DNA from: a virus
Reading direction: 5' to 3' (one strand)
IMG/VR virus record: IMGVR_UViG_3300033996_001333
Location: 3,389-67,388 of that record
DNA: 64,000 nucleotides
The notes under the pieces are model-generated. The model made no database searches, had not been told where the DNA came from, and was given only the letters and a program-made list of their open reading frames with translations. Positions 4,655 through 58,425 of the stretch are shown in pieces; within the stretch, counting starts at the first letter, position 1, and every line of letters begins with the position of its first letter. The translations under genes were made by a program, and so were the position numbers.

Positions 4655-5797
4655 ATGACAATTACACGAAAAGAAATTGAAGACGGGATGATCCTGTTTT
4701 GCAAGTCAGGCAGCCACGCCTATGGCCTCAACACCGAGATGTCCGACTTGGACTTTAAGGGAATCTGTGTGGCGCCACAGCGGTTTTACACCACTCTCGA
4801 AACATTTGAGCAAAAGGATAAGGGGTGGGTAGGGGAGCAACAAGACGAGGGTGAGTTCAACTCTAGATTCCCTGAGTTAGATAACTCGGATTCAGTGGTG
4901 TACGGCATTCGCAGGTACCTGAGCTTGTTGCGGTCGCAAAACCCCAACATTTTGGAGATGCTCTGGCAGACTCCCGACAGCTACCTGTACCTTGACTTTC
5001 TGGGGCAGTCGCTAATTGACAACCGGAGGAAGCTAATTTCCAGGAGAATCTCTGGCACATTCGTTCAGTACGCAAGGTCCCAGATCAAGAAAATGGAGAC
5101 TCACCGCAAATGGCTCTTAAACCCTCCAACACGGCGACCGGAGTGGGAGGACTACGGTGTCTCTTCCCCGAGCTTAACCCCGTCTCAAATCGAGTCTTTC
5201 ATCGAGTACTTGTACTTGCTGATTAAAGACAGAATCGAGTACTACCAACCTTCAGTCGAGCTGTACGAGCTTCTCAACGACCGTGTTGATTGGAAAGGAA
5301 TTTTGAAGCAGAGTGTCTTACCGGAGGAGTGCTTCAATGAAACACAGAAAATCACGAGAGCAAGCGATGAGTACATGGCCCTTCTCCACTCAAGCCAACA
5401 GTACCGGTCAGATTTAAAACGGTGGAGTAATTACCAAGATTGGTTGACTAATCGGAATGTGAAGCGATCCGAAATTGAGCGGGCCTGTGGGTACGACGGG
5501 AAGAACGCCAGCCACTGTGTTCGACTTATGAAAATGGCCATTGAGGGAATGCGAACCGGAGAGCTTCTTGTGAATAGAAAGTTGGTTGGGGACGCAGATT
5601 TTCTTCTGGACATTAAGTACGGCAGGATTACGTATGACGAACTAAGCACAATTGTAACTCAGCTCTTTAAGGAGGCTGAGCACGTGGGGAAGAACGAGTG
5701 CGTCTTGCCGAACACGGTAGATGACCAACTCATCAACACTCTCTGTGCTGAGACTGTGGAAAAATTTCAAAGTCTCGGTTGTATTGAGAACCGGTGA
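4655..5797 (+). CDS. pol-beta-type nucleotidyltransferase (PF10127/RlaP-like)
   Basis: Near the N-terminus, GSHAYGLNTEMSDLDFKG matches the GS...DxD nucleotidyltransferase motif. 380 aa. Confidence 0.55.
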   Translation: MTITRKEIEDGMILFCKSGSHAYGLNTEMSDLDFKGICVAPQRFYTTLETFEQKDKGWVGEQQDEGEFNSRFPELDNSDSVVYGIRRYLSLLRSQNPNILEMLWQTPDSYLYLDFLGQSLIDNRRKLISRRISGTFVQYARSQIKKMETHRKWLLNPPTRRPEWEDYGVSSPSLTPSQIESFIEYLYLLIKDRIEYYQPSVELYELLNDRVDWKGILKQSVLPEECFNETQKITRASDEYMALLHSSQQYRSDLKRWSNYQDWLTNRNVKRSEIERACGYDGKNASHCVRLMKMAIEGMRTGELLVNRKLVGDADFLLDIKYGRITYDELSTIVTQLFKEAEHVGKNECVLPNTVDDQLINTLCAETVEKFQSLGCIENR

Positions 5798-6869: not shown

Positions 6870-7169
6870 ATGAAGTTTATACTGAGTTTAACCCTCTGCG
6901 CTCTATGCTTGTTTTCTTCGGCACAACCTGCTTTCGCCTACCACCCGGAAGGGTGGAGACCTTTCTGGTCAAAGGACGCCCAGAGAGTCACAGAGGAAAA
7001 CTGCAAGTTAGTCGCTGGAGCACAAAGTGTTGGGACACAAACTTGGGAGTTTCTCTACAAGTGCCCCAACGGTGACTCCTTCTGGTCCGAGGTTCTCATT
7101 CCATTCAACCCCACACTGCTTACTCCGCCCTTCTCATCAAATGGAAAAGCGTCACCAGACTCAGACTGA
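6870..7169 (+). CDS. small secreted protein
   Basis: N-terminal signal peptide MKFILSLTLCALCLFSSAQPAFA. 99 aa. Confidence 0.45.
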   Translation: MKFILSLTLCALCLFSSAQPAFAYHPEGWRPFWSKDAQRVTEENCKLVAGAQSVGTQTWEFLYKCPNGDSFWSEVLIPFNPTLLTPPFSSNGKASPDSD

Positions 7170-7356
7170 AGTCCCCTCGCAGACCTTGGGAGACCCCATA
7201 GCCCTGAGTAGCACAGTTGTGGATGGCCTCTGGATCCTGATAATTTTGGCACTATCCCTCTCTGCTCTATTCAGGGTCTCCCGAAGCAGGGTCTTTCGCC
7301 AGAAGTCCCGGTTTTGACTACACTAAAAACACTCTCCGGTAACTCCCGCAAAGTCC

Positions 7357-7542
7357 ATGGAACTCTATCGTAGTCTCACAGCTGAAGAAGAGGACTCTTT
7401 TCGTAGCTGGGCCAGGGAAAACTACGTCCCGTTTTCTGAGATAAAAGGATTCTGGCACCCTTCTGTGCAAGCAGAGTGTGTGCTGATAAACTCTCAAGCT
7501 GGCCAAGATTTCTCCACATCGGCTCTACTGAAGGAGTTTTGA
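7357..7542 (+). CDS. hypothetical protein
   Basis: 61 aa ORF. Confidence 0.35.
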   Translation: MELYRSLTAEEEDSFRSWARENYVPFSEIKGFWHPSVQAECVLINSQAGQDFSTSALLKEF

Positions 7543-9779: not shown

Positions 9780-9868
9780 CCCTTGCCCATGGTGCGAGAC
9801 TCTAACCCTTACCTTGGGTCTTATATCCACCCAAGCAAGCCCGCTCAAACAAGAACCATACAAGGAAA

Positions 9869-10730
9869 AATGACAACTTTCGACAAATGCCTCGGAGCCT
9901 TTATTGGCCTTGCGATCGGTGACGCGATGGGTGCGCCAGTGGAGTTCTCTCCACCGGGGACCTTTGAGACCGTCACAGGTTACCGAGCAGGGGGGCCCTT
10001 TAATCTGCCGTCAGGCTACTGGACGGACGACACATCGCAGGCTGTTTGCCTTGCCGAGTCTTTTATTCATTGCAATGGGCAGATCAATCTTGGAGACCAA
10101 ATGCGTCGGTACTCCAACTGGTACGAGTACGGAAGGAACAGCTCAACAGGTGTCTGTTTTGACATCGGCAATGGAACACTTCGTGCAATTGAGACTTTTC
10201 TCGTTGAGGGGTCTTTGAGTCTCTATCCGGAGAATTCGAAAGGAAACGGGTCTTTGATGCGTTTATCCCCCGTTTCTATTGTGTACCACAAGTCAAGTGA
10301 GCAGGACGCTGTAGCAGCGTGTGACGCGTCATCATCAACAACCCATGGCCACTTGGCATCCGACCTATGCAAAGATCTCGGTCGTTTGCTGCACCAATAC
10401 TTAAATGGCACGGGGGGAAAACCTGAAGTCTCGCCGGAGGGAATTGAAAATTCCGGGTACGCACCGAAGTCCTTAAACGCCGCACTCTACCACTTTGGGT
10501 CAACTTCGTCCTTTGAAGAGGCCATCCTGCAGGCTGTGAACTACGGGGACGACTCAGACACGGTTGCTGCGATTACGGGGCAGCTAGCAGGTGCTTACTA
10601 CGGTTACAAGGCTATTCCTAAGCGATGGGTTTCGGGGTTGCACGACAGCGAAAGACTTTTGCTCATAGCGAGCACTTTGTACGACCTTTCGTTTGGGACG
10701 GTTTCCCCCCTTGTTTCTACTCTGAAATAA
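9869..10730 (+). CDS. ADP-ribosylglycohydrolase (ARH/DraG family)
   Basis: GAFIGLAIGDAMGAPVEF, YWTDDTSQ, GNGSLMRLSPV and YGDDSDTVAAITGQLAGAYYG are ARH family signatures. Start taken at MTTFDK. Confidence 0.75.
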
Positions 10731-12913: not shown

Positions 12914-13552
12914 ATGCTCAACCTTGCTACACTTGTGGCCGTCTCCCTCGTTGGAACTGCTGCAACCCCCTTCAGCAACACCGTTGCCGCTAGGGACATT
13001 GCCCCAGAAACAACTTTCGAATCGCGCTTCATTTGCACAGGCTGCGGTCCAATCAATTCTCTGCCAACTCTCGCTTACAAGCTCACACCAGAGCGTAGAG
13101 CCCTGTTAAACACCATTCGCTTCGCTGAAGGAACCTGGAAAGAAGGCCATAGTGATGGCTACCGGGTTGTATTTGGGGGTGGAACGGTGTCCACGCTAGA
13201 CAGACATCCAAATCAAGTACGTTACTCGCTGCGTTATGCTAGCGCAGCGGCAGGTGCCTACCAGTTCATGCCCGCCACTTGGCGAGAGGCGTCCATCAAA
13301 CTAGGTCTCAACGACTTCGGGCCAGCCAGCCAGGACCAGGCTGCTCTTTATTTGATTGACAGGCGCAACGCTCTCGGTCTAGTTGACGCGGGACGAATCA
13401 CTCCGACACTAGTATCAAAGCTCGCACCAGAATGGGCTTCCCTTCCAACTTACAATGGAAGCAGTTACTACGATCAGCCGGTCAAAACCTACGACAACCT
13501 TCGCCTCTTCTACGAAAACAACTTGGCGATGCTGCGCCAGGAGGAAGGTTGA
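12914..13552 (+). CDS. lambda R-type lytic transglycosylase endolysin with N-terminal signal/SAR segment
   Basis: AEGT, GYRVVFGGG, DRHP, AAGAYQFMPATW, LGLNDFGPASQDQAALYLIDRRNAL and WASLP align to lambda R (SEGT, GYDVIVGGE, SDHP, GAGRYQLLSRWW, LGLKDFSPKSQDAVALQQIKERGAL, WASLP). N-terminal hydrophobic MLNLATLVAVSLVGTAA. Confidence 0.75.
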   Translation: MLNLATLVAVSLVGTAATPFSNTVAARDIAPETTFESRFICTGCGPINSLPTLAYKLTPERRALLNTIRFAEGTWKEGHSDGYRVVFGGGTVSTLDRHPNQVRYSLRYASAAAGAYQFMPATWREASIKLGLNDFGPASQDQAALYLIDRRNALGLVDAGRITPTLVSKLAPEWASLPTYNGSSYYDQPVKTYDNLRLFYENNLAMLRQEEG

Positions 13553-13671
13553 TGGGCGGTTTCCCGAACTTTACCTTAGGCTCTTTACGAGTTATACTGG
13601 GGTCCAGCCCGAAACGGCTTCAGCTAGGAACACCTTCGCTGGGCCAACGGGCACTGAGCCGTGGTTGCGCA

Positions 13672-14061
13672 ATGCAACAAACACGGATGTTCAACTCTAC
13701 TTTATCCATGCGTCTTACAAGACTCGCTTCATTCTTCCTCGCTGCCGGACTTCTTTCCGGAGCCCCCGCTCAAGCCAAGCAGTGCGGTCAAGCCAGCTGG
13801 TACGGTCCAGGACTGTACGGAAACAAAACTGCCAACGGCGAGACCTACCGTCCTGGGACAATGACTGCTGCTCACCCCTACCTCCCCCTCGGGTCTTGGG
13901 TGCGAGTTGTCAATCGCGACAACGGTCTTATTGCCGACGTTCGCATTAACGACCGGGGACCGTTCGTTGGTGGACGAATCATCGACTTGGGACACGGATC
14001 TGCTCAACGCCTTCGAGTAACTGAGAGTGGACTCGCTAACGTTTGCATCACTCGCATTTAG
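13672..14061 (+). CDS. RlpA-like double-psi beta-barrel protein (secreted)
   Basis: GQASWYGPGLYGNKTANGETY...GSWVRVVNRDNG...VRINDRGPFVGGRIIDL is an RlpA/DPBB signature. Signal peptide present. Internal start of track ORF 13432. Confidence 0.65.
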   Translation: MQQTRMFNSTLSMRLTRLASFFLAAGLLSGAPAQAKQCGQASWYGPGLYGNKTANGETYRPGTMTAAHPYLPLGSWVRVVNRDNGLIADVRINDRGPFVGGRIIDLGHGSAQRLRVTESGLANVCITRI

Positions 14062-14068
14062 CCCCTTC

Positions 14069-14100
14069 GGGTGATGACCCTGGTTATCACCCTTTTCCTT
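14069..14100 (+). terminator. rho-independent terminator
   Basis: GGGTGATGACCCTGGTTATCACCC hairpin followed by TTTTCCTT. Confidence 0.55.
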
Positions 14101-14102
14101 AG

Positions 14103-14381
14103 TTGTCTTTCCCAATGATCTTCTACGATTCAGCCACCGCTCAACGATTTGGGACTCAATTGTGCGAAGCACGGCTTTCTCAGGGATGGTCCAAGCAGGA
14201 CATTGCGTTTGCCGCACAAATACCCGTAGAACTTCTTCGAAAGATTGAGCGTGGCTCCGAGGTAGACGTGGGATTTGTGGCAGATGTTGCAAAAGTGCTT
14301 GGGATTGTATTCACAATACTGCCTTTCCGTTCAACACCGTTTTTTACCGTCGAATGTAATTCTCTTGAGGTTAATCCATGA
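14103..14381 (+). CDS. XRE-family HTH protein
   Basis: LSQGWSKQDIAFAAQIPVELLRKIERG is HTH-like. Confidence 0.5.
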   Translation: MSFPMIFYDSATAQRFGTQLCEARLSQGWSKQDIAFAAQIPVELLRKIERGSEVDVGFVADVAKVLGIVFTILPFRSTPFFTVECNSLEVNP

Positions 14382-14623
14382 AAATGTTACAGCTTAAGCA
14401 GAAAGAACCCAACGGCTTCACCCTCTTAGAACTCGTAATTTGCGTCTCCATCACTCTCATACTCCTTTCTATTTCATCGAGTTTACTCTTTGGTAAAAGT
14501 CCGTACAGAATGAGTGACTGTGTTCGATCCGGGGGAAACTGGACCGAAGGCACGGAGAACGGCAGCCCTCTCGCTCTTTGCACTTATGGCCCTGGCCATG
14601 GCTCCACAAGTCCTGAGAACTAA
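14378..14623 (+). CDS. small membrane protein with prepilin-type N-terminal motif (alternatively holin/spanin-like)
   Basis: KEPNGFTLLELVICVSITLILLSI resembles the G/FTLIE class III signal of type IV pilins. Start overlaps the upstream stop (ATGA). Confidence 0.45.
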   Translation: MKMLQLKQKEPNGFTLLELVICVSITLILLSISSSLLFGKSPYRMSDCVRSGGNWTEGTENGSPLALCTYGPGHGSTSPEN

Positions 14624-15794: not shown

Positions 15795-16163
15795 ATGACA
15801 AACCCGCAGTGGGACGACAAAGAGTACCGGGAAGCTTATATGGAAGCATCCATTGAGCAAGCGATTTCCTGGCAAGTAAAAATAAACAGGCAAAAGCGAG
15901 GTTTAACAAAACAACAACTTGCAGATAAGGCTGGAGTTAAAGTGGGAGTTATAGAGAGGTTAGAAGACCCCGAGATAAACGACCACAGCATCGATCTCCT
16001 GGTGAAAGTGGCCAAAGCTTTTGACTGTGCTCTGTCAATTAAACTAATTCCCTACGAGCAACTCGCGCAAGAAAGTCTCGATTTGTCCGAAGAGGCTCAG
16101 TATGCCCCACCCTTTCACACTCGCACCTACCCGTTAACCCACTCGCCGGAACAAACCCAATGA
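15795..16163 (+). CDS. XRE-family HTH protein
   Basis: RQKRGLTKQQLADKAGVKVGVIERLE is HTH-like. Confidence 0.5.
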   Translation: MTNPQWDDKEYREAYMEASIEQAISWQVKINRQKRGLTKQQLADKAGVKVGVIERLEDPEINDHSIDLLVKVAKAFDCALSIKLIPYEQLAQESLDLSEEAQYAPPFHTRTYPLTHSPEQTQ

Positions 16164-16426
16164 CACCCCTTAGAGACAGAATCCAAGTACTTACCAAGCA
16201 AAACCTCCAACAACTAATCGAAGACTACGAGCAGTTCGAGAGAGACGGGGCGATTGGAGACTGCTACCTTCGTTCAACTGCGAAAGAATTTGCAGAGTCT
16301 CTCGGGATACAGGTATCCGACGTGTTGTGGATGGATAGGGTCGCCTTCGAGGCATACCGTGAGCTTTTCTATCGAGTACTGCAGGACTTACCGTACGAGT
16401 GCAGCGGAAGTGGGTACAAGGTCTAG
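16160..16426 (+). CDS. hypothetical protein
   Basis: 88 aa. Overlaps the upstream stop. Confidence 0.45.
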   Translation: MTPLRDRIQVLTKQNLQQLIEDYEQFERDGAIGDCYLRSTAKEFAESLGIQVSDVLWMDRVAFEAYRELFYRVLQDLPYECSGSGYKV

Positions 16427-16440
16427 TTTTACCCCGTGCG

Positions 16441-16488
16441 CGGCGGGAAACCGTCCTTTACCCTCGCCCCTAAACAAGCTATAGTAAG
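16441..16488 (+). promoter_or_regulatory. intergenic element copy 6 (GC hairpin in inverted orientation)
   Basis: CGGCGGGAAACCGTCC...CTAAACAAGCTATAGT. Confidence 0.45.
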
Positions 16489-16507
16489 CTCACACCGTAA
16501 AACAACA

Positions 16508-17449
16508 ATGCACGTGACCGAAACTAAAGAGTATCAGAAAACAGAGCCGATTGAGGTTTACTCGAATCGCGACGGACAAAACCTGTACAAGATTTCAAAG
16601 ACCTCCTTTACGTTCAGTGCCGGTGAAAGGCAGGTCCGGTTGCACGACACTCCAACAAATTCGACTGACATTATCGTAGACGCAGACATACACAGCGGAG
16701 AAAGTTTCGCAGAACTTCTTCTGACTCTGTCGGCCATCAAAGACCTTCCTGTGCTGCGAAGTCTACAATTGGACATCCCGTACTTACCTTATAGCCGCCA
16801 AGACCGCCAGTGCGCTGAAGGGGAAGCGTTTTCGCTAAGAACTTTTGTAAAAGCTCTCGCCCCTTATCTTAAGGGAGTGTGCGACCGGGTGTACACATGG
16901 GACGTGCACAGCCACGTTGCAAATGAGCTCTTTCGAACCGAAATCGGCTGCGAGTTCAACAACCTACAACCCCAACTGTTTCTCCAGAAGTTCAAAGACC
17001 GGGGGCAAGAGTTTAGTGCTGAGACAATTGTGATTGCTCCGGATAAAGGTGCAGTCGAAAGAGCAACCCTCGTACAACAAACACTGGGGCTCCACTCTGT
17101 AGTGTACGCTACGAAAGTTCGCAACCCTGAAGACGGGCAAATCCTAAGGACGGAAGTTCCAGAAGACGTCAGTTACAAGGGCAAAAACCTTCTGATTGTG
17201 GACGACATCTGCGATGGCGGTCGCACCTTTATCGAACTCGCCAAGGTGCTACGTCAGTTCGACCCGTCTCGAATTGACCTCTATGTAACTCACGGAATTT
17301 TCTCCAAGGGTTTTAAGGTGTTTGGGAGCTTAATCGACAACTTTTTCGTTGCGAACTTGCTCCCGTATAAAGCCTTTTACCAAGAGTTACCCTCGTACTT
17401 GACCTACCTTCGTACCGAAAACTACCCCACCCCACGCAACCAACCATGA
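16508..17449 (+). CDS. ribose-phosphate pyrophosphokinase homolog (Prs-like, or ADP-ribose pyrophosphokinase Adps-like)
   Basis: IPYLPYSRQDRQ matches MPYxGYARQDR. LIVDDICDGGRT is the PRPP-binding loop. Stop overlaps the next ATG. Confidence 0.75.
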   Translation: MHVTETKEYQKTEPIEVYSNRDGQNLYKISKTSFTFSAGERQVRLHDTPTNSTDIIVDADIHSGESFAELLLTLSAIKDLPVLRSLQLDIPYLPYSRQDRQCAEGEAFSLRTFVKALAPYLKGVCDRVYTWDVHSHVANELFRTEIGCEFNNLQPQLFLQKFKDRGQEFSAETIVIAPDKGAVERATLVQQTLGLHSVVYATKVRNPEDGQILRTEVPEDVSYKGKNLLIVDDICDGGRTFIELAKVLRQFDPSRIDLYVTHGIFSKGFKVFGSLIDNFFVANLLPYKAFYQELPSYLTYLRTENYPTPRNQP

Positions 17450-18960
17450 AAATTTTTGCGCCCCACGCAACCGACTTTTACAAGACAGGACACCCTTCGC
17501 AAAACCCTGAAGGCACCGAAGTAATCTACGCCAACATGACGGCAAGGTCCGACCGTCTGGCGAACATGCCCGCTGACTTCGACCACAAGATCGTCGTGGC
17601 CAACATCCAGGGGACAATGAAATGGATGCTGAGGGATCTTTGGAATGAGACCTTTTTTCAGCAACCCAAGGCCAAGGTGTTGGACAAATACAAGCGGCGA
17701 ATGGACTCCTCGCTCGGAGAAGGTGTTGTCGGCACTGACCACATTGCTGAGCTTCACGACCTGGGTTACATGCCGCTGCATGTGAAGGCACTACCCGAGG
17801 GCAGCCGTGTTAACATCGGAGTGCCGTTTCTGACGGCGCAAAACACACACAATGAGTTTAAGTGGCTGGCCCCGTGGTTAACCAACTATGTCGAAACCGC
17901 CAAGTCGTCTGAGCTGTGGAAGGCCATCAACGTGGCAACCATCGCCTACGAGTTTCGCCGTCTTCTCGACCACTACGCTGAAACCACAGGGAGTAATCCG
18001 CAGTTTGTTGACTTTCAGGGGCACGACTTCTCCGCTCGCGGAGTCGGAGGCATTCACGATGCCGCTGCGCACCAAATCGGCCACCTTTTTTCCTTCAAGG
18101 GCACGGACACAATCCTTTCCATTGATTATTTGGAGGATTACTACGATTGCGGTTCCAATTTCATTGGGGGTAGTATTCCCGCTACGGAACACAGTGTGAC
18201 CTGCCTTGGCGGTCAAAGAAACGAATTAGAGACAATTCGTCGAATTATTACAAAAGTATACCCAACTGGGCCGGTCAGTGTAGTTTTTGACACTTGGAAC
18301 TACTGGGATGCACTGACTGTTATTGCACCCGCACTTAAGGAAGACATCTTAAATCGTCGTCCGAATTCTCAGGGCATCGCTAAGGTCGTATTCCGTCCCG
18401 ACAGTGGTGACCCTGAGAAAATCATCTGCGGTGACGCTGACGCTGAGCCAGGTAGCCGAGAGTACAAAGGTTCGCTTGAGCTTTTATGGGAGGTCTTCGG
18501 AGGAACGGTAAACGAGAAGGGTTTCAAGGTACTGAACCCTCGAGTTGGCTTAATTTACGGCGACTCAATCACTCTTCCACGGGCCAGGGCCATCCTGGAG
18601 CACATGAGGCAGCTTGGGTGGGCGTCCGAAAACATCGTGTTCGGTATCGGTTCCTACACCTATCAATACCATACACGGGACACGTTCGGTATCGCATACA
18701 AAACGACCTGGGGGCAAATTAACGGTGTCGCCGTTGAAACTATGAAGGACCCCATTACGGATCGCGGCACGAAAAAGTCGGCGTTGGGTCTACTGCGAGT
18801 TGAAAAGGATGGGGAGAACTTTGTTCTTCATCAACAGCAGACTCGTGAGCAAGAGCAGCGAGGCGAGCTTCGCACCGTGTTCTTAAACAGCGTGGTTTAC
18901 GGGGAGGATGTAAACTCACTGCCTAACATTCGTACTCGACTTCTCAACCCCGCAGCTTAG
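17446..18960 (+). CDS. nicotinamide phosphoribosyltransferase homolog (Nampt/NadV-like, or Namat-like)
   Basis: 504 aa. N-terminal TDFYKTGH (compare the Nampt TDSYK motif), internal FKGTDT. ATGA overlap with the Prs-like gene. Confidence 0.7.
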   Translation: MKIFAPHATDFYKTGHPSQNPEGTEVIYANMTARSDRLANMPADFDHKIVVANIQGTMKWMLRDLWNETFFQQPKAKVLDKYKRRMDSSLGEGVVGTDHIAELHDLGYMPLHVKALPEGSRVNIGVPFLTAQNTHNEFKWLAPWLTNYVETAKSSELWKAINVATIAYEFRRLLDHYAETTGSNPQFVDFQGHDFSARGVGGIHDAAAHQIGHLFSFKGTDTILSIDYLEDYYDCGSNFIGGSIPATEHSVTCLGGQRNELETIRRIITKVYPTGPVSVVFDTWNYWDALTVIAPALKEDILNRRPNSQGIAKVVFRPDSGDPEKIICGDADAEPGSREYKGSLELLWEVFGGTVNEKGFKVLNPRVGLIYGDSITLPRARAILEHMRQLGWASENIVFGIGSYTYQYHTRDTFGIAYKTTWGQINGVAVETMKDPITDRGTKKSALGLLRVEKDGENFVLHQQQTREQEQRGELRTVFLNSVVYGEDVNSLPNIRTRLLNPAA

Positions 18961-19059
18961 GCTTGGTACAAGGGGGTTTACACCCCCTGTTCCGGGGTAT
19001 AATTCTGAAAGAACTGACGTTCCCTCGTGCGATGGGGAAACACTTAAATCACCAAGGTC

Positions 19060-19650
19060 ATGGACTACAAGACAATCGCATACAAGAAAACCATTCTGGT
19101 TTTAAATGCCACGTACGAACCCTTGAACCAGACCTCGTGGCGAAGGGCTAGAGTGCTTGTATTGAAGGACAAGGCCCATGTCGTGTCCAGCCGCACCATT
19201 CGCCTAAAGACATACGTTAAGGTTCCCCAAGCCAAGATGGCAGCGGCGAAGCCCTCTCGCACCTTGATTCTAAAACGGGACAATCACACCTGCCAGTATT
19301 GCGAGTACTCCGGTCCTAAACTAACACTGGATCACGTTTTACCAAAGTCAAGAGGTGGCCAAGACACGTGGCAAAACCTTGTCACCAGCTGCCTTGAGTG
19401 CAACAATTGCAAGGACAATCGCACCCCGGAAGAGTGGGCGGTTGCCCTGAAGAAGGTGTTTTCGAAGGAAACCACGAATGTTTCTTCACTGCCTTTTAGC
19501 TGGGATAGCTTTCAGATTGGGATGATGGAAACCCGCGTCACTCGACGTGGCACCACTCTCGCCTCAAAACCGAAGGCACCTTACAGCAAAATGTCCGTTA
19601 CAATCAGCACGGCGGAAGTTGAAGAGTGGCGTGAGTACGTCTATGTCTGA
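19060..19650 (+). CDS. HNH endonuclease
   Basis: CQYCEY...LTLDHVLPKSRGG...WQNLVTSCLECNNCK is an HNH motif. Confidence 0.75.
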   Translation: MDYKTIAYKKTILVLNATYEPLNQTSWRRARVLVLKDKAHVVSSRTIRLKTYVKVPQAKMAAAKPSRTLILKRDNHTCQYCEYSGPKLTLDHVLPKSRGGQDTWQNLVTSCLECNNCKDNRTPEEWAVALKKVFSKETTNVSSLPFSWDSFQIGMMETRVTRRGTTLASKPKAPYSKMSVTISTAEVEEWREYVYV

Positions 19651-23950: not shown

Positions 23951-24601
23951 GTGACCAAAGCACCCCAACCCATGAAGTCTCCCCCTGAATCAGTTACAGG
24001 AAAACTTTTGCTGAAGCCAGGGGACAGTGTGTTTGTTCCTGGAAAAATACTTAAAAATTCACCCGACGGTCGAACCTGGGGCACTGAAGTTCCTTACCTT
24101 CACTTTCGGAAGAGTCCAGTAAAAGACGGTCTCTACGTTGTGTCCGACATCTGGATGCACCCGAAAGCAACAGACCCGAACGTTCCATCCTCGTACTGCT
24201 ACACTCTGGTAAGAGTCCGTGAGGATCGAACCTGGACAAATGAACGGCGTAATCACAGAACACTAAGAAGCTGCTTCTCCCCGGAAGACATGTCAGAGAC
24301 AAAACTCCCGTACAACTGCCTCGACTGGGACCAGCTCCTTCGAGACCAAGTAGTTACGTCCTACGCGTACACCCCTGGTGAAAAGTTCGACATGGACGAG
24401 TTTAGAAAAGATCTGGGCCAAGTTCTTTACAAGCACAAGGTTACTCTGTCAGTAGACACGAAGTTCTCCGACGACTGGGACGAGCACGGCACAAACCACC
24501 TTGTTGTCCTCGCTAACGGGGAAATAAGGGGTGACCTTGGGTCTGACTTTCCAAAGCGGAGATCAGCGCCAGCCTGGGACAGTGGGAAACGAAATCGCTA
24601 G
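23951..24601 (+). CDS. hypothetical protein
   Basis: 216 aa ORF upstream of the RNA ligase. Confidence 0.5.
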   Translation: MTKAPQPMKSPPESVTGKLLLKPGDSVFVPGKILKNSPDGRTWGTEVPYLHFRKSPVKDGLYVVSDIWMHPKATDPNVPSSYCYTLVRVREDRTWTNERRNHRTLRSCFSPEDMSETKLPYNCLDWDQLLRDQVVTSYAYTPGEKFDMDEFRKDLGQVLYKHKVTLSVDTKFSDDWDEHGTNHLVVLANGEIRGDLGSDFPKRRSAPAWDSGKRNR

Positions 24602-24656
24602 TCCCAACCTTGCCCAGATAAACAAAACTCAACGGTCCCACCCACCTAAAGCTGTC

Positions 24657-25769
24657 ATGGAACCTTTAAACCTGCGCCACTTTCTAATCGACTGGTTAAA
24701 CTACCGGGTCGAGACTGCTTTTGAAGCACTTGCCGAGCACGACATTCGTGTTGCTCGCGACGAACGTTACCCTGCTCTTTTTAACTTGAAGTATGGCAGT
24801 GTAATGGCGGACAAGTCACTACCGATTGTTCGTGCCTGCCGTGGTGCCGTAGTCGAACTTGTTGACGATGGCACGGGCTCCCCGTACTTTCGGCTGGTTG
24901 CGTACGCCTTCGACCGCTTTTTCAACGTTGGCGAGGGGTATGCCGCTGAGATTGATTGGTCCACTGCCCGTGTAGCTGAGAAGTATGACGGGTCTCTGAT
25001 CAAGTTGTTCAACTATAAAGGAGAGTGGTTGGTATCAACATCGGGTTCAGTCGCTGGTTCTTCGGAAGTCGGGACCACGGGTCGCTCCTTCTCCGAGTTG
25101 TTTTGGCACGTTTTTAACGAAGTTGGATATGACCGGGCTGACCTCGACCCTTATTTTGTCTACGTCTACGAGTTGTGCCACAAAGACAACAAAATTGTTG
25201 TAGACTACGAGACTCCCTTACTACCTCTTCTGGCTGTTCGAAGCCGCTTTGACGATCTAAACGAAGTGGATCTCAAGCATTTTGAAAACCGCTTCAACAT
25301 CGCTCAGACCTACGACCTGCGCTCACATGAAGCTGTAACGCAGTTTGTAAACGACTCCTCTCGTGGTACCGCTGAAGGCGTAATTATTGTCGACGGAAAC
25401 GGAAACCGCCAGAAAGACAAGTCCAACGTCTATTGTCAGTTGCACAGGGTTAAAGGAAACGGCGAACCGGATTTCTCCGAGCTTTTCCTGAACGACGACT
25501 TGGAAGAGTTTCTGCTTCACTTTCCCGAGTATCGTGGGGGTTTTGACGTTCACCTGCGTTCCATCGAAGTGATGGAGAGTGCGGTGAGCGAGAACATGAG
25601 GGCTCACAACCATCTTAACCAGAAGGATTTCGCTCAAGCCGTACTTGCCGAGTCAAAAGAACTTTCTGGAGCATGCTTTGCGATTCGATCCGGCAAAGTC
25701 GGATCCTTTGCAGAGTGGCTCGAAGGTTTAACCCCGAAAAAGCTCGACGTTTTGCTCGGAATTTCCTGA
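24657..25769 (+). CDS. RNA ligase, T4 Rnl1-like
   Basis: AEKYDGSLIKLF is nucleotidyltransferase motif I (KxDG), like T4 Rnl1 KEDGSL. 370 aa taken from the internal ATG (MEPLNL). Confidence 0.65.
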   Translation: MEPLNLRHFLIDWLNYRVETAFEALAEHDIRVARDERYPALFNLKYGSVMADKSLPIVRACRGAVVELVDDGTGSPYFRLVAYAFDRFFNVGEGYAAEIDWSTARVAEKYDGSLIKLFNYKGEWLVSTSGSVAGSSEVGTTGRSFSELFWHVFNEVGYDRADLDPYFVYVYELCHKDNKIVVDYETPLLPLLAVRSRFDDLNEVDLKHFENRFNIAQTYDLRSHEAVTQFVNDSSRGTAEGVIIVDGNGNRQKDKSNVYCQLHRVKGNGEPDFSELFLNDDLEEFLLHFPEYRGGFDVHLRSIEVMESAVSENMRAHNHLNQKDFAQAVLAESKELSGACFAIRSGKVGSFAEWLEGLTPKKLDVLLGIS

Positions 25770-38044: not shown

Positions 38045-38600
38045 ATGATTGAGGCTAAAGGGGCAATGAAAGTGTACACAGGAATTGGGGGGCGAGAGAC
38101 ACCTGGTCCGATTCTGGCACTTATGGGCCGAATTTCGGCAAGGATGGACCGTCTAGGATTCACACTGCGCTCGGGTGGTGCAGACGGGGCTGACTCAGCT
38201 TTTGAGGAACACTCTACGAGAAAAGAGATATTTCTCCCGTACAACGGCTTTAATGGAAGGCACCACGATGGCGTATCCTACTTTGACTACCTTTTGTGTC
38301 CAGGACGAGAGCTAGCTCAAGAAAGCGTGGAGCGGTTCCACCCCGCACCCTCTCGGCTCTACGGTAAGGGGCGAAAGTTAATGGCTAGGAACGCGATGCA
38401 AGTCCTAGGGAGAGACTGCAAGAGCCCAACAGACGTGGTAATTTGCTGGACAAAAACGGTAAGGATGTCGGTGGAACTTCGCAGGGGATTCGCATCGCTA
38501 GGTTTCACAACATTCCTATCCTTAACCTTGGCAACTCGGCCACAGAGACCTATCTCACTGCTTTCACAGACGATTCCGACTCGCCTTTTGTACTTCCTTA
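38045..38600 (+). CDS. SLOG-family protein (DUF2493/DprA-like), apparently frame-shifted
   Basis: YTGIGGRETP...LRSGGADGADSAFEE is a DUF2493/SLOG motif. Near 38452-38456 (CAAAAAC) the coding signal moves to the -1 frame, which reads ...GKDVGGTSQGIRIARFHNIPILNLGNSATETYLTAFTDDSDSPFVLP*. The track ORF tail beyond about 38470 reads as non-coding. Confidence 0.45.
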
Positions 38601-38666
38601 GGGCGGTTTCCCGGTTATCCTGGGGCGGTTTCCCCGTTTGTTTTCCAGACGGAAAACGCTATAGTA
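38601..38666 (+). promoter_or_regulatory. intergenic element copy 18 (double motif)
   Basis: GGGCGGTTTCCCGGTTATCCTGGGGCGGTTTCCCCGTTTGTTTTCCAGACGGAAAACGCTATAGT. Confidence 0.55.
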
Positions 38667-38708
38667 TGTTTATACGGGACAAAACCCGCAATCCATCCCT
38701 CAGACAAA

Positions 38709-38987
38709 ATGGCATTCACATCCGAAGGAACAATCGAGATCGACCTTCCCGAGTTATGGGAATGGGTTCACGACAACTATCTCCCTGTCCCCAGGGGGTC
38801 TGAGGTACGTTATGGGGTGCCCCGCATCAACCGTGGGAACTCCGTCATGGAAATTGACTTTGCGGCTGCTACCGAGTGCGATCCGGCGGATTGGGCGGTG
38901 AAGCCGAAGGCGGTGACCCAGTGGGATTCTACTGGCGCTGCACCAACTGAGGGTCCTACCGAGGGGGGGAGCTCAACATACCATTGA
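38709..38987 (+). CDS. hypothetical protein
   Basis: 92 aa. The 3' end contains a G7 tract at 38963-38969. Confidence 0.45.
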   Translation: MAFTSEGTIEIDLPELWEWVHDNYLPVPRGSEVRYGVPRINRGNSVMEIDFAAATECDPADWAVKPKAVTQWDSTGAAPTEGPTEGGSSTYH

Positions 38988-38988
38988 G

Positions 38989-39138
38989 CTGCGTGTATCG
39001 CAAAACTTTTATGACGTGGTGACCCTTCTTGCAAAGACTGACGGTATAAGTAAAGCCGACGTCATAAGAAGGGCTGTGGAGCTATTCGCCAGAGAGGCAG
39101 CCGAAGAGCTCCAGAGAACTCACCCACTTAACAACTAA
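38989..39138 (+). CDS. ribbon-helix-helix (CopG/Arc-like) domain, no canonical start
   Basis: ELRVSQNFYDVVTLLAKTDGISKADVIRRAVELFAREAAEEL is a classic RHH pattern. It lies in the +1 frame relative to 38709..38987, immediately after the G7 tract. Confidence 0.4.
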   Translation: MRVSQNFYDVVTLLAKTDGISKADVIRRAVELFAREAAEELQRTHPLNN

Positions 39139-39159
39139 AAACAAACACCCTAAGGAAAA

Positions 39160-40281
39160 ATGGCAAACATCGAACGCAAACTCGCCTCCGTCCGACAAGT
39201 AACGGAGATTCGCCCAATCCCGGACGCCGACGCAATTGAGTGCGCCATCGTGGGAGGTGGCTGGCCCGTTGTCGTGAAGAAGGGGGAGTTCCAAGCTGGC
39301 GATCTTGCAATCTACTTCGAGATTGACTCGTGGATCCCCCACGGGCTTGCCCCGTTCTTGTCAAAGGGGAAGGAACCAAGGGAGTACAATGGAGTGAAGG
39401 GGGAAAGGTTGAAAACCGTCCGGCTCCGTGGCCAAGTCTCTCAGGGTCTCCTACTTCGCTTCTCGGACATCTCTCCAAGCTTCTACGTTGTTTCGCTAGC
39501 TGAACCTTATGGGGGGAGGGGATCTCTCCGAGTTGATGAGTGTGTGTGGGAAGAAGGCGAAGATTTCACTCTAGAGTTTGGCATTCAGAAATGGGAGGCC
39601 ACGGTCCCCGCTTGCCTTGCCGGACAAGTGCGTGGAAACTTCCCGAGTTTTTTGGTTAAGAGTGACCAAGAGAGATGTCAAAATATCGTGAGAAAAATCT
39701 TCGAGGAGCACAAGGAGGAAACCTACGAAGTATCCTTGAAGCTGGACGGGTCTTCCTGCACCATTTATGCCCGAGACGGGGACAGTGGCGTGTGTAGCCG
39801 CAACCTAGACCTTAAGGAAACAGAAGGAAACAGCTTCTGGAAGGCTGCTCGAGAACAAGGTGTAATCGACGCCTTGCTGTCCTATAATAAGGAAACCGGT
39901 CGCAACATTGCTCTTCAGATGGAGCTGTGCGGTGAAGGAATTCAAGGAAACCAAGAAGGAATCAAAGGACAACGGCTTTTTCTTTTTGACGTCTTCGACA
40001 TCGACACTCAGACCTACATGAAGCCGGGGCAGCGACTTGTTTTCCTTGACGAGGTTTTGACTGAGCTTGGGGCCAAGTTGGAACACACTCCCATTATTGA
40101 CCTTCGAACTTACGTTGCCGGACGATTCGCCAACCTTGACGAGCTACTTGCTTATGCAGATGGTCCGTCTATGAACCCAAAAGTCAAGCGTGAAGGTGTG
40201 GTGTTCAAATCGTACGACTCCGCGTTCTCCTTCAAGGCCATTAGCAACGAGTGGTTGCTGTGGAAAGGGAAGAAAGGGTGA
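39160..40281 (+). CDS. RNA ligase, DraRnl/DRB0094-like (Rnl5 family)
   Basis: N-terminal KLASVRQVTEIRPIPDADAIECAIVGGGWPVVVKKGEFQAGDLAIYFEIDSWIP resembles the DRB0094-family N-domain. Motif I candidate VSLKLDGSS (KxDG). Confidence 0.55.
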   Translation: MANIERKLASVRQVTEIRPIPDADAIECAIVGGGWPVVVKKGEFQAGDLAIYFEIDSWIPHGLAPFLSKGKEPREYNGVKGERLKTVRLRGQVSQGLLLRFSDISPSFYVVSLAEPYGGRGSLRVDECVWEEGEDFTLEFGIQKWEATVPACLAGQVRGNFPSFLVKSDQERCQNIVRKIFEEHKEETYEVSLKLDGSSCTIYARDGDSGVCSRNLDLKETEGNSFWKAAREQGVIDALLSYNKETGRNIALQMELCGEGIQGNQEGIKGQRLFLFDVFDIDTQTYMKPGQRLVFLDEVLTELGAKLEHTPIIDLRTYVAGRFANLDELLAYADGPSMNPKVKREGVVFKSYDSAFSFKAISNEWLLWKGKKG

Positions 40282-40299
40282 GGGTGAATTGCCCCTTAA

Positions 40300-40343
40300 G
40301 GGCGGTTTCCCGCCCTTGTTTCTCCGGGGGCAAAACGCTATAA
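40300..40343 (+). promoter_or_regulatory. intergenic element copy 19 (canonical)
   Basis: GGGCGGTTTCCCGCCCTTGTTTCTCCGGGGGCAAAACGCTATAAT. Confidence 0.6.
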
Positions 40344-40376
40344 TAAATGAGTCAGTTCACCCCGCACTAAACCTAA

Positions 40377-40649
40377 ATGTCCGCCCCAACCTCGTATGAG
40401 TACCCTCAGGGCACTACTCCCGAAGCGATTGAAGCCTTTCGCACCATCTGGTGTCAAACACCCGAAGACGACATCCGCTTAGGTCCCGTCTTTGAAATAT
40501 TCCTGAAGGGGTTTGTTGCCGGTCGGATTTCCATATTTGAGCAACTTTCCTACGGCATCTCGGACTTGGACGAGAGGGTTGAGGACCTGGAGCGATTCCG
40601 AAACGCAACCGCAAATTACGACTCGTTCGGCGACTACACACGACAATAA
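40377..40649 (+). CDS. hypothetical protein
   Basis: 90 aa ORF. Confidence 0.45.
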   Translation: MSAPTSYEYPQGTTPEAIEAFRTIWCQTPEDDIRLGPVFEIFLKGFVAGRISIFEQLSYGISDLDERVEDLERFRNATANYDSFGDYTRQ

Positions 40650-40762
40650 AGCCACTATTCCAAACTCTCCTGACCTAACCTTAGTTGTAGCTGTACGTTA
40701 TTCACATACGGCTCAGTACGCCCTACGGTTACACTCTCCGGTCCAAACCGCAAATCTCAAAA

Positions 40763-40975
40763 ATGGAACTACTTGCCATAGCCCTGTTCAGTGTAGCCAT
40801 CGGTGCCATAGGCTACACCTGCGATCGACGAGACTGGAACGGGGGCTTCTGCAGGGAGTCCGGTAAACCGTGGGTTCAGTTTGACACCGCAAGCGATGGC
40901 TCCCGAGGATATAGGGACGGGTCTGATAACTACATTTGGATTTCTTATCCCGTCGACCACTCGAAAGTTTCCTAG
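40763..40975 (+). CDS. hypothetical protein
   Basis: 70 aa with N-terminal hydrophobic segment. Confidence 0.4.
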   Translation: MELLAIALFSVAIGAIGYTCDRRDWNGGFCRESGKPWVQFDTASDGSRGYRDGSDNYIWISYPVDHSKVS

Positions 40976-41023
40976 TGCCCTCAACCGTGCCATTTCAACT
41001 CCCCATATACACAACCACCCCAA

Positions 41024-41326
41024 ATGATAAATCCAGAAGACCGAATCTTGTTCGACCCTCTCACTGAAACTTTCACGTATCCTGACGGGATTCAAGAAAC
41101 CCTGGCCCAATACAAACGACGAACTTACCAGTTCGAGTACATTCGCAATCTCCAGAGTGCACTCGAAGAACTTAAGGTTCTTTACCAAAACCCTGGCTGC
41201 ATGACCAAATCCGAGTACGAAAAGGCCAAAGAGAAAATCCAGGACGAGTTCGACTACTGGGAACTCAACCTTTTCATCGAGTACGACGATGACGACTTTG
41301 GTAGTTCACCTAAGTATCCGCATTAA
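41024..41326 (+). CDS. hypothetical protein
   Basis: 100 aa ORF. Confidence 0.45.
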   Translation: MINPEDRILFDPLTETFTYPDGIQETLAQYKRRTYQFEYIRNLQSALEELKVLYQNPGCMTKSEYEKAKEKIQDEFDYWELNLFIEYDDDDFGSSPKYPH

Positions 41327-41359
41327 CACAAAACTCTGGCTAACTCATCACTCGTCAAA

Positions 41360-41527
41360 ATGTCTCCACTACTCTCCGCGCTCATCTGGATGTTTATAAT
41401 GTGGGTGTCCATATTTTTGGGTCTCGTACGTTACAGGGAAAATAAACTAGGGTGGGCTTCCTTTAATTTTTTGACCACCGTATTAGCACTTTGCAACCTT
41501 ATAGGTTTGCTTCTGAAACCCAATTAA
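41360..41527 (+). CDS. small membrane protein (55 aa)
   Basis: MSPLLSALIWMFIMWVSIFLGLV... has two hydrophobic segments. Below the track cutoff. Confidence 0.35.
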   Translation: MSPLLSALIWMFIMWVSIFLGLVRYRENKLGWASFNFLTTVLALCNLIGLLLKPN

Positions 41528-41531
41528 CCGT

Positions 41532-42041
41532 ATGAGTACACTTTATAGGGCCAACGGAGACCTGTTAGTGCTGGCTCGCAAGGGTCAGTTTGACATAATT
41601 GTCCACGGCGCCAATTGTTTTAATAAGATGGCTTCAGGCATCGCGGGGCAAATAAGCCGTGAGCACCCTGAAGCAGCGAACGTTGACCTTTCCACTCGGG
41701 CAGGGGACCGGGGCAAACTCGGTCGTTTTACCATGGCACAGGTTCAAGGGAGCGGTAACCATACTTTCTACATTGTCAACGCATATACTCAGTACTCGTA
41801 CGGAAGGGGCAAAGACATTTTCGAGTATGACTTTTTCCGAGACTTTCTCAAAAGTTTTCAAACTTTTTTAAGGAGCGGCGCCATGGCTGCGCCACTGGAC
41901 GGGAAGTTTGCGGTAGGATTCCCATACATTGGGTGCGGTCTCGCTGGCGGAGACGAAGAAAAGATAGTGAATATGCTCGAAAGTTTTTCCGGATCGTGCC
42001 ACGATATTGCGGAAGTCACTCTCGTACGGTACGTGCGATGA
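41532..42041 (+). CDS. macro domain protein (ADP-ribose binding/hydrolase)
   Basis: IVHGANCFNKMASGIAGQI and GFPYIGCGLAGGD match the macro-domain patterns VNAAN...GGGVA.AI and FP.I.tGi.G. Confidence 0.65.
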   Translation: MSTLYRANGDLLVLARKGQFDIIVHGANCFNKMASGIAGQISREHPEAANVDLSTRAGDRGKLGRFTMAQVQGSGNHTFYIVNAYTQYSYGRGKDIFEYDFFRDFLKSFQTFLRSGAMAAPLDGKFAVGFPYIGCGLAGGDEEKIVNMLESFSGSCHDIAEVTLVRYVR

Positions 42042-57202: not shown

Positions 57203-57706
57203 GTGAAAACCGCTGTAACGTTTGGTCGGTTTAACATTGGTCATCCTGGCCACGTTGAGCTAGTTAAAAAGTTACTCACCCTCGGTTCGACCGCTAAAGT
57301 ATATGTGTCCGTGGGGAGAAAGAACAACGATTGGGACCTTCGAGTTTTACTTCTGCGAACGCTATGCCGCCAAGCAAGCATTGACCTGAGTAGGGTATCA
57401 TTTCTAAAGGCCATCGATCCCTATGCGGGGTTGTCAGATGTGCTAAAAAGCAGGAAGCCAAGCGAGGTGGTTCTCGTTCTGGGGTCTGACCAAGCTTCAC
57501 TCGGACTGCAACTTTCGCACTGCTTTGGTGTTTCTTTTCACGAGAACGAACGAAGTGGTTCGAGCACGGCACTAAGAAAGGTTTTAGACCAAGGCAAAAC
57601 TCCTGCGCCTTTCCAGGGAAACAGGTACGCTTTTAAACTTGCAACACTCTTGAGGCACAATGAAAAGTTCCGAAAAGCTCAAAGAAAAGTTAAGGCGTCT
57701 GCTTAA
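57203..57706 (+). CDS. cytidylyltransferase-fold nucleotidyltransferase, NMN adenylyltransferase (NadM)-like
   Basis: TFGRFNIGHPGHVELVKK resembles the (H/T)xGH motif GRFQPFHxGH of NadM-type NMNAT. GTG start. Confidence 0.5.
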   Translation: MKTAVTFGRFNIGHPGHVELVKKLLTLGSTAKVYVSVGRKNNDWDLRVLLLRTLCRQASIDLSRVSFLKAIDPYAGLSDVLKSRKPSEVVLVLGSDQASLGLQLSHCFGVSFHENERSGSSTALRKVLDQGKTPAPFQGNRYAFKLATLLRHNEKFRKAQRKVKASA

Positions 57707-57881: not shown

Positions 57882-57887
57882 AGTTGG

Positions 57888-57950: not shown

Positions 57951-57956
57951 ATAAAT

Positions 57957-58421: not shown

Positions 58422-58425
58422 CGAA

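Follow-up and report, generated by a model that had tools for sequence, protein, structure and literature searches.

A divergent Adps and Namat gene pair of an uncultivated jumbo phage as a probable NARP1 operon

An overlapping gene pair of the Prs and Nampt families

The window, a 64,000-nucleotide stretch of viral DNA, carries two overlapping genes that we annotate as adps and namat. The first (16508..17449, + strand, 313 aa) is predicted to encode an ADP-ribose diphosphokinase of a Prs-family subfamily, gene 1 of NAD+ reconstitution pathway 1 (NARP1), and the second (17446..18960, + strand, 504 aa) a nicotinamide ADP-ribose transferase of a Nampt-family subfamily, gene 2 of that pathway. 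Read off the sequence, the junction is ccATGAaaa, where the ATG (17446-17448) and the TGA (17447-17449) form a 4-nt ATGA overlap (17446..17449, + strand). This arrangement, which suggests that adps and namat are co-translated, also occurs in the closest relatives (L012-L014). The coordinates, the Prs-like and Nampt-like reading frames and the stop/start overlap all agree with an earlier note on this DNA, and the motifs it named (IPYLPYSRQDRQ, LIVDDICDGGRT, TDFYKTGH and FKGTDT) were all found. A GTG at 16436 offers an alternative adps start that would give 337 aa; the ATG at 16508 was preferred because the alignments of close relatives begin there.

The immediate neighbours of the pair are an HTH gene, an 88-aa ORF and an HNH endonuclease. 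The 88-aa ORF, which lies upstream of the pair, has no Pfam or PHROG match, and a RyR-domain (RyDEP) neighbour as in DyoEdafos is unsupported. No phage genome matched the locus by megablast. The gene order itself is strongly conserved, with a Namat homolog directly downstream of the Adps homolog in 79 of 80 related viral loci. In a published survey, a Namat was found within ten genes for 97% of Adps-clade genes (Osterman et al. 2024); in the window it is the very next gene, overlapping adps by 4 nt.

Subfamily membership of the two proteins

Similarity to Prs- and Nampt-family HMMs, whose absence the earlier note would have counted against its proposal, is clear for both proteins (TIGR01251, 1.5e-37; NF006629, 2.6e-148). 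However, Namat and Nampt are not told apart by Pfam, NCBIfam PRK09198 and PHROG 448/619, nor are Adps and Prs, and a KVP40-like Nampt and E. coli Prs match these generic models as well. Since such libraries cannot discriminate the subfamilies, the assignment was based on sequence motifs, relatives in the PDB, patterns of model scores and trees.

The product of 16508-17449 belongs to the Prs superfamily, with profile matches to PF13793, PF00156 and PF14572, a phrog_619 score of 220 bits (8e-65) and matches to Prs structures in the PDB at 1e-17. TIGR01251, a broad model, is the sole NCBIfam Prs model that it passes (129 bits, cut-off 113), while the equivalog and subfamily Prs models give 48-122 bits against cut-offs of 296-536, none of which is reached. 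The validated Adps of Bas63 behaves in the same way (TIGR01251 138 bits, equivalogs at most 114); E. coli Prs, by contrast, reaches 423-533 bits on these models. The Prs versus Adps comparison proposed in the earlier note yields the Bas63 Adps pattern, far below E. coli Prs. The loop DDICDGGRTF is identical in the window and Bas63 proteins, which also have YVTHGIFSKG and K-V-R-N in common, and the K-x-R-[ND] motif (K203, R205) is conserved with the Bas63, ICP1, phage K and Acinetobacter homologs. K203 may be the counterpart of the flexible-loop catalytic K162 of SpβL1 Adps. Neighbour-joining (NJ) trees place the window protein within the clade of Namat-adjacent homologs, alongside the Adps of Bas63, ICP1 and phage K, and the split between Adps-type proteins and E. 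coli plus archaeal Prs has 100/100 bootstrap support in an NJ, not ML, analysis with few outgroups (one bacterial and two partial archaeal Prs). For both proteins the bootstrap was run on about 20 taxa out of a 73-taxon set. Clade, score pattern, shared loops and synteny strongly support membership in the Adps subfamily and not identity as a housekeeping Prs.

For the product of 17446-18960, the family matches are PF04095 (5e-34), NF006629 (2.6e-148) and phrog_448 (4e-177). Its best PDB relative is the Namat of SpβL1 (9W5X/9W5W) with 441 bits, against 192 bits for human Nampt. [quoted passage not shown] Its Φ3 is an atypical His, a position usually occupied by Asn or Val. The equivalent stretch is GGGLLQQSDRD in KVP40-type Nampt and GSGGGLLQKLTRD in human Nampt, both lacking the aromatics, while a Namat-type SCH motif is present in all 77 full-length Namat homologs from the related loci, one of which (L033) lacks the position-7 aromatic. 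In the second clamp element, the SCL, which in Namat contributes an Arg, Lys or Tyr for stacking, R37 aligns to R40 of SpβL1 with both phmmer and MAFFT. A clamp-loop stacking role for R37 is plausible from this alignment, and we infer it with caution as the SCL loop is variable and is 4-5 residues longer in the window protein than in SpβL1. The catalytic core is conserved (D10, Y12, F195, R198, D221, R317, D319 and G372-D373; in SpβL1 D13', Y15', F189, R192, D215, R306, D308 and G360-D361), as are all the NAM/NMN-site residues, so that the loss of catalytic residues named in the earlier note as a ground for rejection is not seen in this protein.

The trees and searches give the same division. 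Namat-type proteins separate from KVP40-type plus human Nampt with 100/100 bootstrap support, again by NJ and not ML and with few outgroups (one phage Nampt and a human Nampt fragment). In tblastn searches against phages the scores are bimodal, at 280-570 bits for operon-type homologs and at most 177 bits for KVP40/RB43-type genes, and the window protein has 33% identity to a KVP40-like Nampt of the other clade. With SpβL1 Namat as nearest relative and the clamp motif intact, the Nampt versus Namat comparison suggested earlier strongly supports a Namat subfamily enzyme and not a housekeeping Nampt.

Proposed pathway, distal genes and alternative readings

The earlier note had left two readings side by side, NARP1 and classical NAD+ salvage. 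The clamp motif, the best PDB relative, the trees, the HMM score pattern and the synteny strongly support the former, and we estimate at roughly 85% the probability that these two genes make up a NARP1 operon in an uncultivated jumbo phage. By published work on its homologs, the pathway would begin when a host NADase effector (TIR, SIR2, SEFIR and similar) cleaves NAD+ into ADP-ribose (ADPR) and nicotinamide. Adps would use ATP to pyrophosphorylate ADPR at 1'', giving ADPR-PP, the adenine of which would be gripped by the aromatic clamp of Namat (Y404, Y408, R37'), and the conserved Nampt catalytic core would then couple nicotinamide and ADPR-PP directly into NAD+. The sequence data establish that the proteins are homologous to these enzymes, fall in their subfamilies, carry the signature residues and are encoded as a conserved pair; the enzymology and the anti-defence role would follow from what has been published on the homologs.

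A function apart from defence, in which the pair boosts PRPP or NAD+ so that a large genome can be replicated in nutrient-poor hosts, appears extremely improbable. Genes of this kind are called auxiliary metabolic genes in jumbophage papers, and chromosomal copies exist in bacteria outside mobile elements. However, ADPR, the substrate of NARP1, is in short supply unless an NADase is active. The NARP1 phages described so far give no NAD+ rise in defence-free cells, and for Bas63 the rise is reported only in hosts with an NAD+-depleting system. The placement in the Adps and Namat clades also counts against this view.

In the classical salvage reading, which resembles NARP2, Prs supplies PRPP, Nampt makes NMN and a distal nucleotidyltransferase (NTase) adenylates NMN to NAD+. 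The generic family models do name the two proteins Prs and Nampt/NAPRTase, the nearest bacterial relative adjoins a Nudix-annotated gene, and Namat enzymes keep PRPP-dependent NMN synthesis in vitro, at about half the PRPP activity of human Nampt, so some classical flux is possible on sequence grounds. As the main function, however, this reading is very unlikely: both proteins cluster with validated ADPR-using enzymes and fall outside canonical Prs (E. coli) and KVP40-type Nampt, the aromatic adenine clamp of Namat is intact, and no phage in the survey of Osterman et al. (2024) has NARP1 and NARP2 together.

The distal gene on which classical salvage would depend also argues against it. The earlier note had placed an NMNAT-like gene at 57203..57706 (+ strand), and the ORF is indeed present, encoding a HIGH-motif NTase (GRFNIGHPGH ... 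SSTALR); the NMNAT role attached to it is putative. The 167-aa protein is a single domain, without Nudix, whose match to PF01467 (CTP_transf_like) is weak (23.5 bits) and which has no significant sequence match to NMNATs. Its family profile finds glycerol-3-P cytidylyltransferase in the PDB at 1e-4 and NMNATs at about 0.1, while the AF2 model (pLDDT 94) has NadM as its nearest fold. The gene lies 38 kb from the pair, and its conserved neighbours in relatives are genes for a Pnkp-type polynucleotide kinase, a metallophosphatase and FEN, an RNA-repair neighbourhood and not one of NAD genes; no NAPRTase-family gene was found within 10 kb of it in those relatives. A split NadR, with the NTase as NMNAT and the neighbouring kinase as ribosylnicotinamide kinase, was considered and discarded, since the matches of that kinase are to Pnkp, PSTK and T4 PNK. 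An hhalign comparison of the NTase family with a 255-aa Acinetobacter 'NadM/Nudix' ORF was uninformative, with no NTase similarity, and no PnuC-like ORF was seen in the ORF survey of the window. We regard the protein as a HIGH-motif NTase of unproven specificity that is dispensable for NARP1.

The earlier note had further suggested that ADPR-releasing enzymes, an ADP-ribosylglycohydrolase (ARH) and a macrodomain, feed the pathway. For the macrodomain (41532..42041, + strand) this holds in part, as it is Poa1p-like in the manner of the published Adpp, the ADPR-1''-phosphate phosphatase (function described in bioRxiv 10.64898/2026.01.28.702374), but it lies outside the operon. Together with its NARP1-adjacent homologs it matches, as a profile, Poa1p (6LFU/6LFQ, ADP-ribose 1''-phosphate phosphatase) at 1.6e-12, and also the macrodomain 5E3B and OARD1; it scores 136 bits against phrog_335 'phosphatase'. 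Homologs with about 40% identity occur in Pakpunaviruses, and in one of these, Pseudomonas phage LPS-5, the homolog sits two genes downstream of Namat. Others are within or beside the pair in several related loci (L015, L034, L045/46, L061 and L075/76). Among the immediate neighbours of the window operon no such gene is present within two genes, and the only macrodomain found in the window is 22.6 kb downstream of namat. Given its homology to the macrodomain phosphatase gene adjoining NARP1 in LPS-5, we consider it probably an unlinked Adpp, in an accessory role where it would probably turn ADPR-1''-phosphate, a product of RES-type NADases, into ADPR and widen the substrate range. The ARH gene (9783..10730, + strand; PF03747 208 bits, phrog_6572 206 bits) lies about 5.8 kb upstream of adps, a position kept in L012 and L013. 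No connection of ARH with NARP1 was found in the literature searched, and a part for it as a source of free ADPR is still speculation.

These distal genes could be joined to the pair in a system that is mainly NARP1, with residual PRPP-to-NMN flux through a new divergent NMNAT (57203-57706) and with ARH and the macrodomain completing a dispersed NAD+/ADPR network. Every component is present in one genome segment, the macrodomain is Adpp-like, and the NTase model is confident and nearest to NadM. We nevertheless hold this dual operation to be highly improbable: neither the NTase nor the ARH is linked to NAD genes among the relatives examined, the substrate specificity of the former is unproven, and the latter is not tied to NARP1 in the literature searched. 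The broader proposal that the lineage has a dispersed multi-entry NAD+ recovery network, composed of NARP1, an unlinked Adpp, ARH and a new 167-aa NMNAT family, is likewise unlikely, though conceivable. There, ARH would free ADPR from ADP-ribosylated targets and the NMNAT would turn NMN, a side-product of Namat, into NAD+; if true, the network would be a NARP1/NARP2 hybrid, a type absent from the phages of the original survey.

Comparison with known NAD+ reconstitution systems

In NARP2 of Vibrio phage KVP40, the Nampt NadV acts with the bifunctional Nmnat NatV, and the window genome likewise combines a Nampt-family enzyme with an NTase of NMNAT-like fold. However, the window enzyme is Namat-type, outside the KVP40 clade and with the clamp present, and the NTase is a single domain. 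NARP3, a fused NadR-like NMNAT/ribosylnicotinamide kinase with PnuC, is not matched by a single-domain NTase and a Pnkp-like kinase.

Bacterial prs2-nadV clusters, exemplified by an Acinetobacter contig filed as 'phage MD-2021a', have the same gene order. They hold the closest relatives of the pair in annotated collections (NadV 60%, Prs2 34.5% identity), and Acinetobacter NadV carries the Namat-type GSFTYNYLTRD, but their context is chromosomal, with a Nudix-annotated neighbour. Classically read, nadV with a prs paralog and Nudix context would mean PRPP-based salvage; the clusters may be bacterial NARP1, as Lan et al. propose, or housekeeping salvage.

In NARP1-AP of Vibrio phage Gary the order is Adps, the Adpp macrodomain phosphatase, then Namat. 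The window genome also has a Poa1p-like macrodomain, homologous to the macro 'phosphatase' beside NARP1 in LPS-5, and several metagenomic phages have such a homolog beside NARP1; the window gene differs in its distance from namat, and its likeness to Gary Adpp is by description (Poa1p-like). This unlinked gene suggests that scans limited to operon neighbours may miss some NARP1-AP capacity.

The closest correspondence is with NARP1 of Bas63, SpβL1, Fado, ICP1 and DyoEdafos (Osterman et al. 2024; Lan et al. NAR 2026), which have the same adps-then-namat operon, Adps-type loops, Namat catalytic core, SCH aromatic motif and SCL Arg, and fall in the same clades. Identity is low, at 31% to Bas63 for Adps and 42-47% to Bas63 and SpβL1 for Namat. 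The window pair differs in its 4-nt translational overlap, its longer SCL loop, the His at Φ3 and its lineage, an uncultivated jumbo phage with relatives on contigs of 88-277 kb. The clamp signature is kept in nearly all 77 metagenomic operon-linked homologs and absent from KVP40-like and human Nampt, the two PRPP-type references compared, and can thus guide the practical annotation of genes to which pipelines still give the names 'Prs' and 'Nampt'. We take the locus as a further example of a pathway known from other phages, NARP1 (Adps plus Namat), which restores NAD+ from ADPR and nicotinamide and so overcomes bacterial immunity that depletes NAD+. With 31-47% identity to characterised enzymes, the pair enters the catalogue as a divergent one from an uncultivated lineage of jumbo phages, and the known picture of the pathway stays unchanged.

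The gene pair and its genomic setting

Both members of the overlapping Prs-like/Nampt-like pair claimed in the earlier note were recovered by the ORF survey on the plus strand, as a 313-aa ORF (adps, 16508-17449) and a 504-aa ORF (namat, 17446-18960). Their junction in the sequence reads ccATGAaaa, the stop of the first gene sharing 4 nt with the start of the second. Prs- and Nampt-family models gave strong matches far beyond chance: Pribosyltran_N, Pribosyltran, Pribosyl_synth, TIGR01251 (1.5e-37) and PHROG 619 (8e-65) for the Prs-like protein, and NAPRTase (5e-34), NF006629 (2.6e-148) and PHROG 448 (4e-177) for the Nampt-like protein.

The window resembles a phage genome in that nearly all genes lie on the same strand and small ORFs without annotated function are numerous; its GC content is 50%. 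Its nearest relatives, IMG/VR viral contigs with lengths of 88, 190 and 277 kb, encode Adps and Namat proteins that are each 94-100% identical to those of the window; no DNA-level match to the locus was found among isolate phage genomes. Across 15795-19650, identity to the related loci L012-L014 is mosaic (L014: Adps 100%, Namat 98%, upstream 88-aa ORF 76%; L013: Adps 94%, Namat 100%), implying that the operon or its surroundings have recombined. The 88-aa ORF, which has no family match, overlaps an HTH_3 (Cro/C1-type) gene directly upstream of adps (15795-16426); both are kept in the closest relatives and may be an accessory factor and a regulator of the operon. An HNH endonuclease gene 100 nt downstream of namat (19060-19650), whose position is kept in loci L012-L023 (76-100% identity), may be a homing-endonuclease passenger of the operon. 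The absence of a Shine-Dalgarno-like purine run ahead of either start codon (16490-16507, 17430-17445) hints at a host with weak Shine-Dalgarno usage; the adps leader is A-rich (aaaacaacaATG). Unusually for a phage, region 13432-14623 encodes a double-psi beta-barrel protein of the RlpA type and contains a short ORF whose N-terminus (GFTLLELV) resembles that of type IV prepilins.

Assignment to the Namat and Adps subfamilies

Two readings of the pair had been proposed: classical salvage, in which Prs makes PRPP and Nampt makes NMN, and NAD+ reconstitution pathway 1 (NARP1), in which Adps and Namat rebuild NAD+. Generic models are blind to this distinction, PRK09198 and PHROG 448 being passed by a KVP40-like Nampt, Bas63 Namat and the window protein. 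Four specific tests all point to a Namat. The top solved relatives are 9W5X and 9W5W (441 bits, versus 192 bits for human Nampt), which are SpβL1 Namat according to the depositors' paper. The Namat-specific "selectivity clamp" defined by Lan et al. (PMC12774641) comprises an SCH motif, GS-X-Φ-X-Φ-X-Φ-TRD with aromatics at positions 3 and 7, and SCL, a variable loop contributing Arg, Lys or Tyr. The window SCH is GSYTYQYHTRD (Y404, Y406, Y408), compared with GSYTYQYMTRD in Bas63, GSYTYQYVTRD in ICP1 and GSFTYQYNTRD in SpβL1, while the same positions in PRPP-type enzymes read GGGLLQQSDRD (KVP40-like Nampt) and GSGGGLLQKLTRD (human Nampt); in the SCL, R37 aligns with SpβL1 R40. All nicotinamide/NMN-site residues are kept. 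Across 50,697 phage records, tblastn scores are bimodal, with 280-570 bits for phages carrying the two-gene operon and at most 177 bits for KVP40/RB43-type T4-like phages. In the neighbor-joining (NJ) tree, the window protein lies among operon-linked homologs, split from human and KVP40-like Nampt with 100/100 bootstrap support.

The Prs-like protein likewise sides with Bas63 Adps, not with E. coli Prs. Of the NCBIfam models, the broad TIGR01251 is the only one passed (129 bits), while the equivalog and subfamily models for Prs, with cut-offs of 296-536, yield 48-122 bits; validated Bas63 Adps has the same pattern (138 bits, then at most 114), whereas E. coli Prs reaches 423-533 bits. The window and Bas63 proteins share the K-V-R-N flexible-loop motif, the loop DDICDGGRTF (DDMIDTGGTL in E. 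coli Prs) and YVTHGIFSKG (ATHPIFSG). NJ trees nest the protein in a Namat-adjacent clade containing Bas63, ICP1 and phage K, with E. coli and two archaeal Prs outside (100/100 bootstrap). Of 80 related viral loci, 79 have a Namat homolog directly downstream of the Adps homolog, the exception being truncated, and all 77 full-length partners carry a Namat-type SCH motif, one (L033) without the position-7 aromatic. Osterman et al. report a Namat gene no more than ten genes away for 97% of the Adps clade; in the window namat is as close as possible, adjoining and overlapping adps.

By homology to the systems characterised by Osterman et al. and Lan et al., Adps would pyrophosphorylate ADP-ribose with ATP to ADPR-PP and Namat would condense it with nicotinamide into NAD+, thereby refilling a pool depleted by TIR, SIR2 or SEFIR effectors.

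In locus L020 (6874-9390; also L021), the Namat gene forms one continuous reading frame of 838 codons, or about 815 aa counted from the start of Namat. An intein-like segment of about 305 aa interrupts it in frame, immediately behind the catalytic RPDSGDP motif (window residues ~319-327). Bas63 Namat (L006, 3674-5455) has an insertion of about 66 aa, also in frame, shortly downstream (window residues ~331-336), and in several further relatives the alignment breaks at query residues 329-340; the region after RPDSGDP seems to be a hot spot for insertions. The 112-kb record CAKLQF020000015.1, filed as "Acinetobacter phage MD-2021a", looks like a bacterial chromosome rather than a phage and carries iron ABC transport, AraC regulator and efflux genes. 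It also holds prs2, nadV and a Nudix-annotated ORF; since its NadV (60% identical to window Namat) has a Namat-type motif (GSFTYNYLTRD), the pair may be a bacterial NARP1. A solved "Nampt" (PDB 9KE8/9KEO; 360 bits against window Namat), which groups beside the Namat proteins of SpβL1 and phage K, has GAQTYQRNTRD as its SCH; with neither the position-3 nor the position-7 aromatic, it may represent an intermediate or a reversion.

The distal nucleotidyltransferase and RNA-repair genes

The earlier note's suggestion that the gene at 57203-57706 completes NAD+ synthesis found no support. Its product is one of a large family in which GRFNIxHxGH and SST..R are invariant motifs; the family profile ranks glycerol-3-phosphate cytidylyltransferase (1e-4) above NMNATs (only ~0.1). 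In relatives, the gene has as conserved neighbours a 74-aa ORF and genes for an AAA_33 kinase, a metallophosphatase and a 5'-3' exonuclease, and no gene of the NAPRTase family was found within 10 kb of the homologs there. Hits for the kinase are C. thermocellum Pnkp (kinase domain), PSTK, Pnkp1 and T4 PNK. The setting is one of RNA repair, which fits the presence of two RNA ligases and an RlaP gene in the window. As NMNAT is moreover dispensable for NARP1, and assignment as the fused NadR of NARP3 was rejected, an NMNAT role is possible but unsupported.

In L092-L099, related metagenomic contigs of up to 124-162 kb, the genes of 57203-60061 keep their order (HIGH-nucleotidyltransferase, 74-aa ORF, Pnkp-type kinase, metallophosphatase, 5'-3' exonuclease); no member of the nucleotidyltransferase family has been characterised. 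The large RNA-repair set (4655-5797, 24531-25769, 39160-40281, 42690-43427, 57957-59133) comprises an RlaP nucleotidyltransferase, a T4 Rnl1-like and a PHA02142-OB RNA ligase, the Pnkp-type AAA_33 kinase overlapping a metallophosphatase, and a second metallophosphatase, which suggests counter-defence against tRNA- or RNA-cleaving systems.

ADP-ribose enzymes and comparison with known NARP1

The proposal that ARH and macrodomain enzymes feed the pathway held in part for the macrodomain. The ARH (9783-10730) is a genuine family member, and nothing was found in the literature searched that links ARH to NARP1. According to a 2026 preprint of Osterman et al. (bioRxiv 10.64898/2026.01.28.702374), 15% of phage NARP1 operons come with a Poa1p-like macrodomain (Adpp), which converts ADPR-1''-P, the aRES NADase product, to ADPR for NARP1; the extended pathway is named NARP1-AP. 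The profile of the window macrodomain (41532-42041), built with homologs, matches the yeast Poa1p ADP-ribose-1''-phosphate phosphatase (1.6e-12) and OARD1. Homologs (~40% identity) occur in Pakpunaviruses, the copy of Pseudomonas phage LPS-5 lying two genes downstream of Namat, and beside or inside the Adps/Namat pair in several metagenomic relatives. The window gene is 22.6 kb from the pair, and its neighbours, a DprA-like gene and an RNA ligase, are also NARP1 neighbours in LPS-5. Together, these features make it a probable unlinked Adpp, outside the operon-based definition of NARP1-AP.

At 38045-42041, genes for a DprA-like protein (phrog_768), an RNA ligase and the macrodomain form a cluster, and genes of these three types border Adps and Namat in LPS-5; in the jumbo-phage lineage, either the NARP1 pair or the three-gene cluster has moved. 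In loci L045/L046, a macrodomain gene (7034-7471) sits between Adps and Namat, like the published Adps-Adpp-Namat order of Vibrio phage Gary.

Osterman et al. put the share of sequenced phages with NARP1 at 4.3%, and the pathway was previously reported in a jumbophage. The main value of the window locus is correct annotation, with a hint from its macrodomain that accessory NARP1 genes can be unlinked. Judged by its sequence, the locus is a divergent new NARP1 member: its Adps is 31% identical to that of Bas63 and its Namat 42-47% identical to those of Bas63 and SpβL1, with minor peculiarities in the 4-nt overlap, a longer SCL loop, a His at Φ3 (the third Φ position of the SCH signature) and the dispersed accessory macrodomain.
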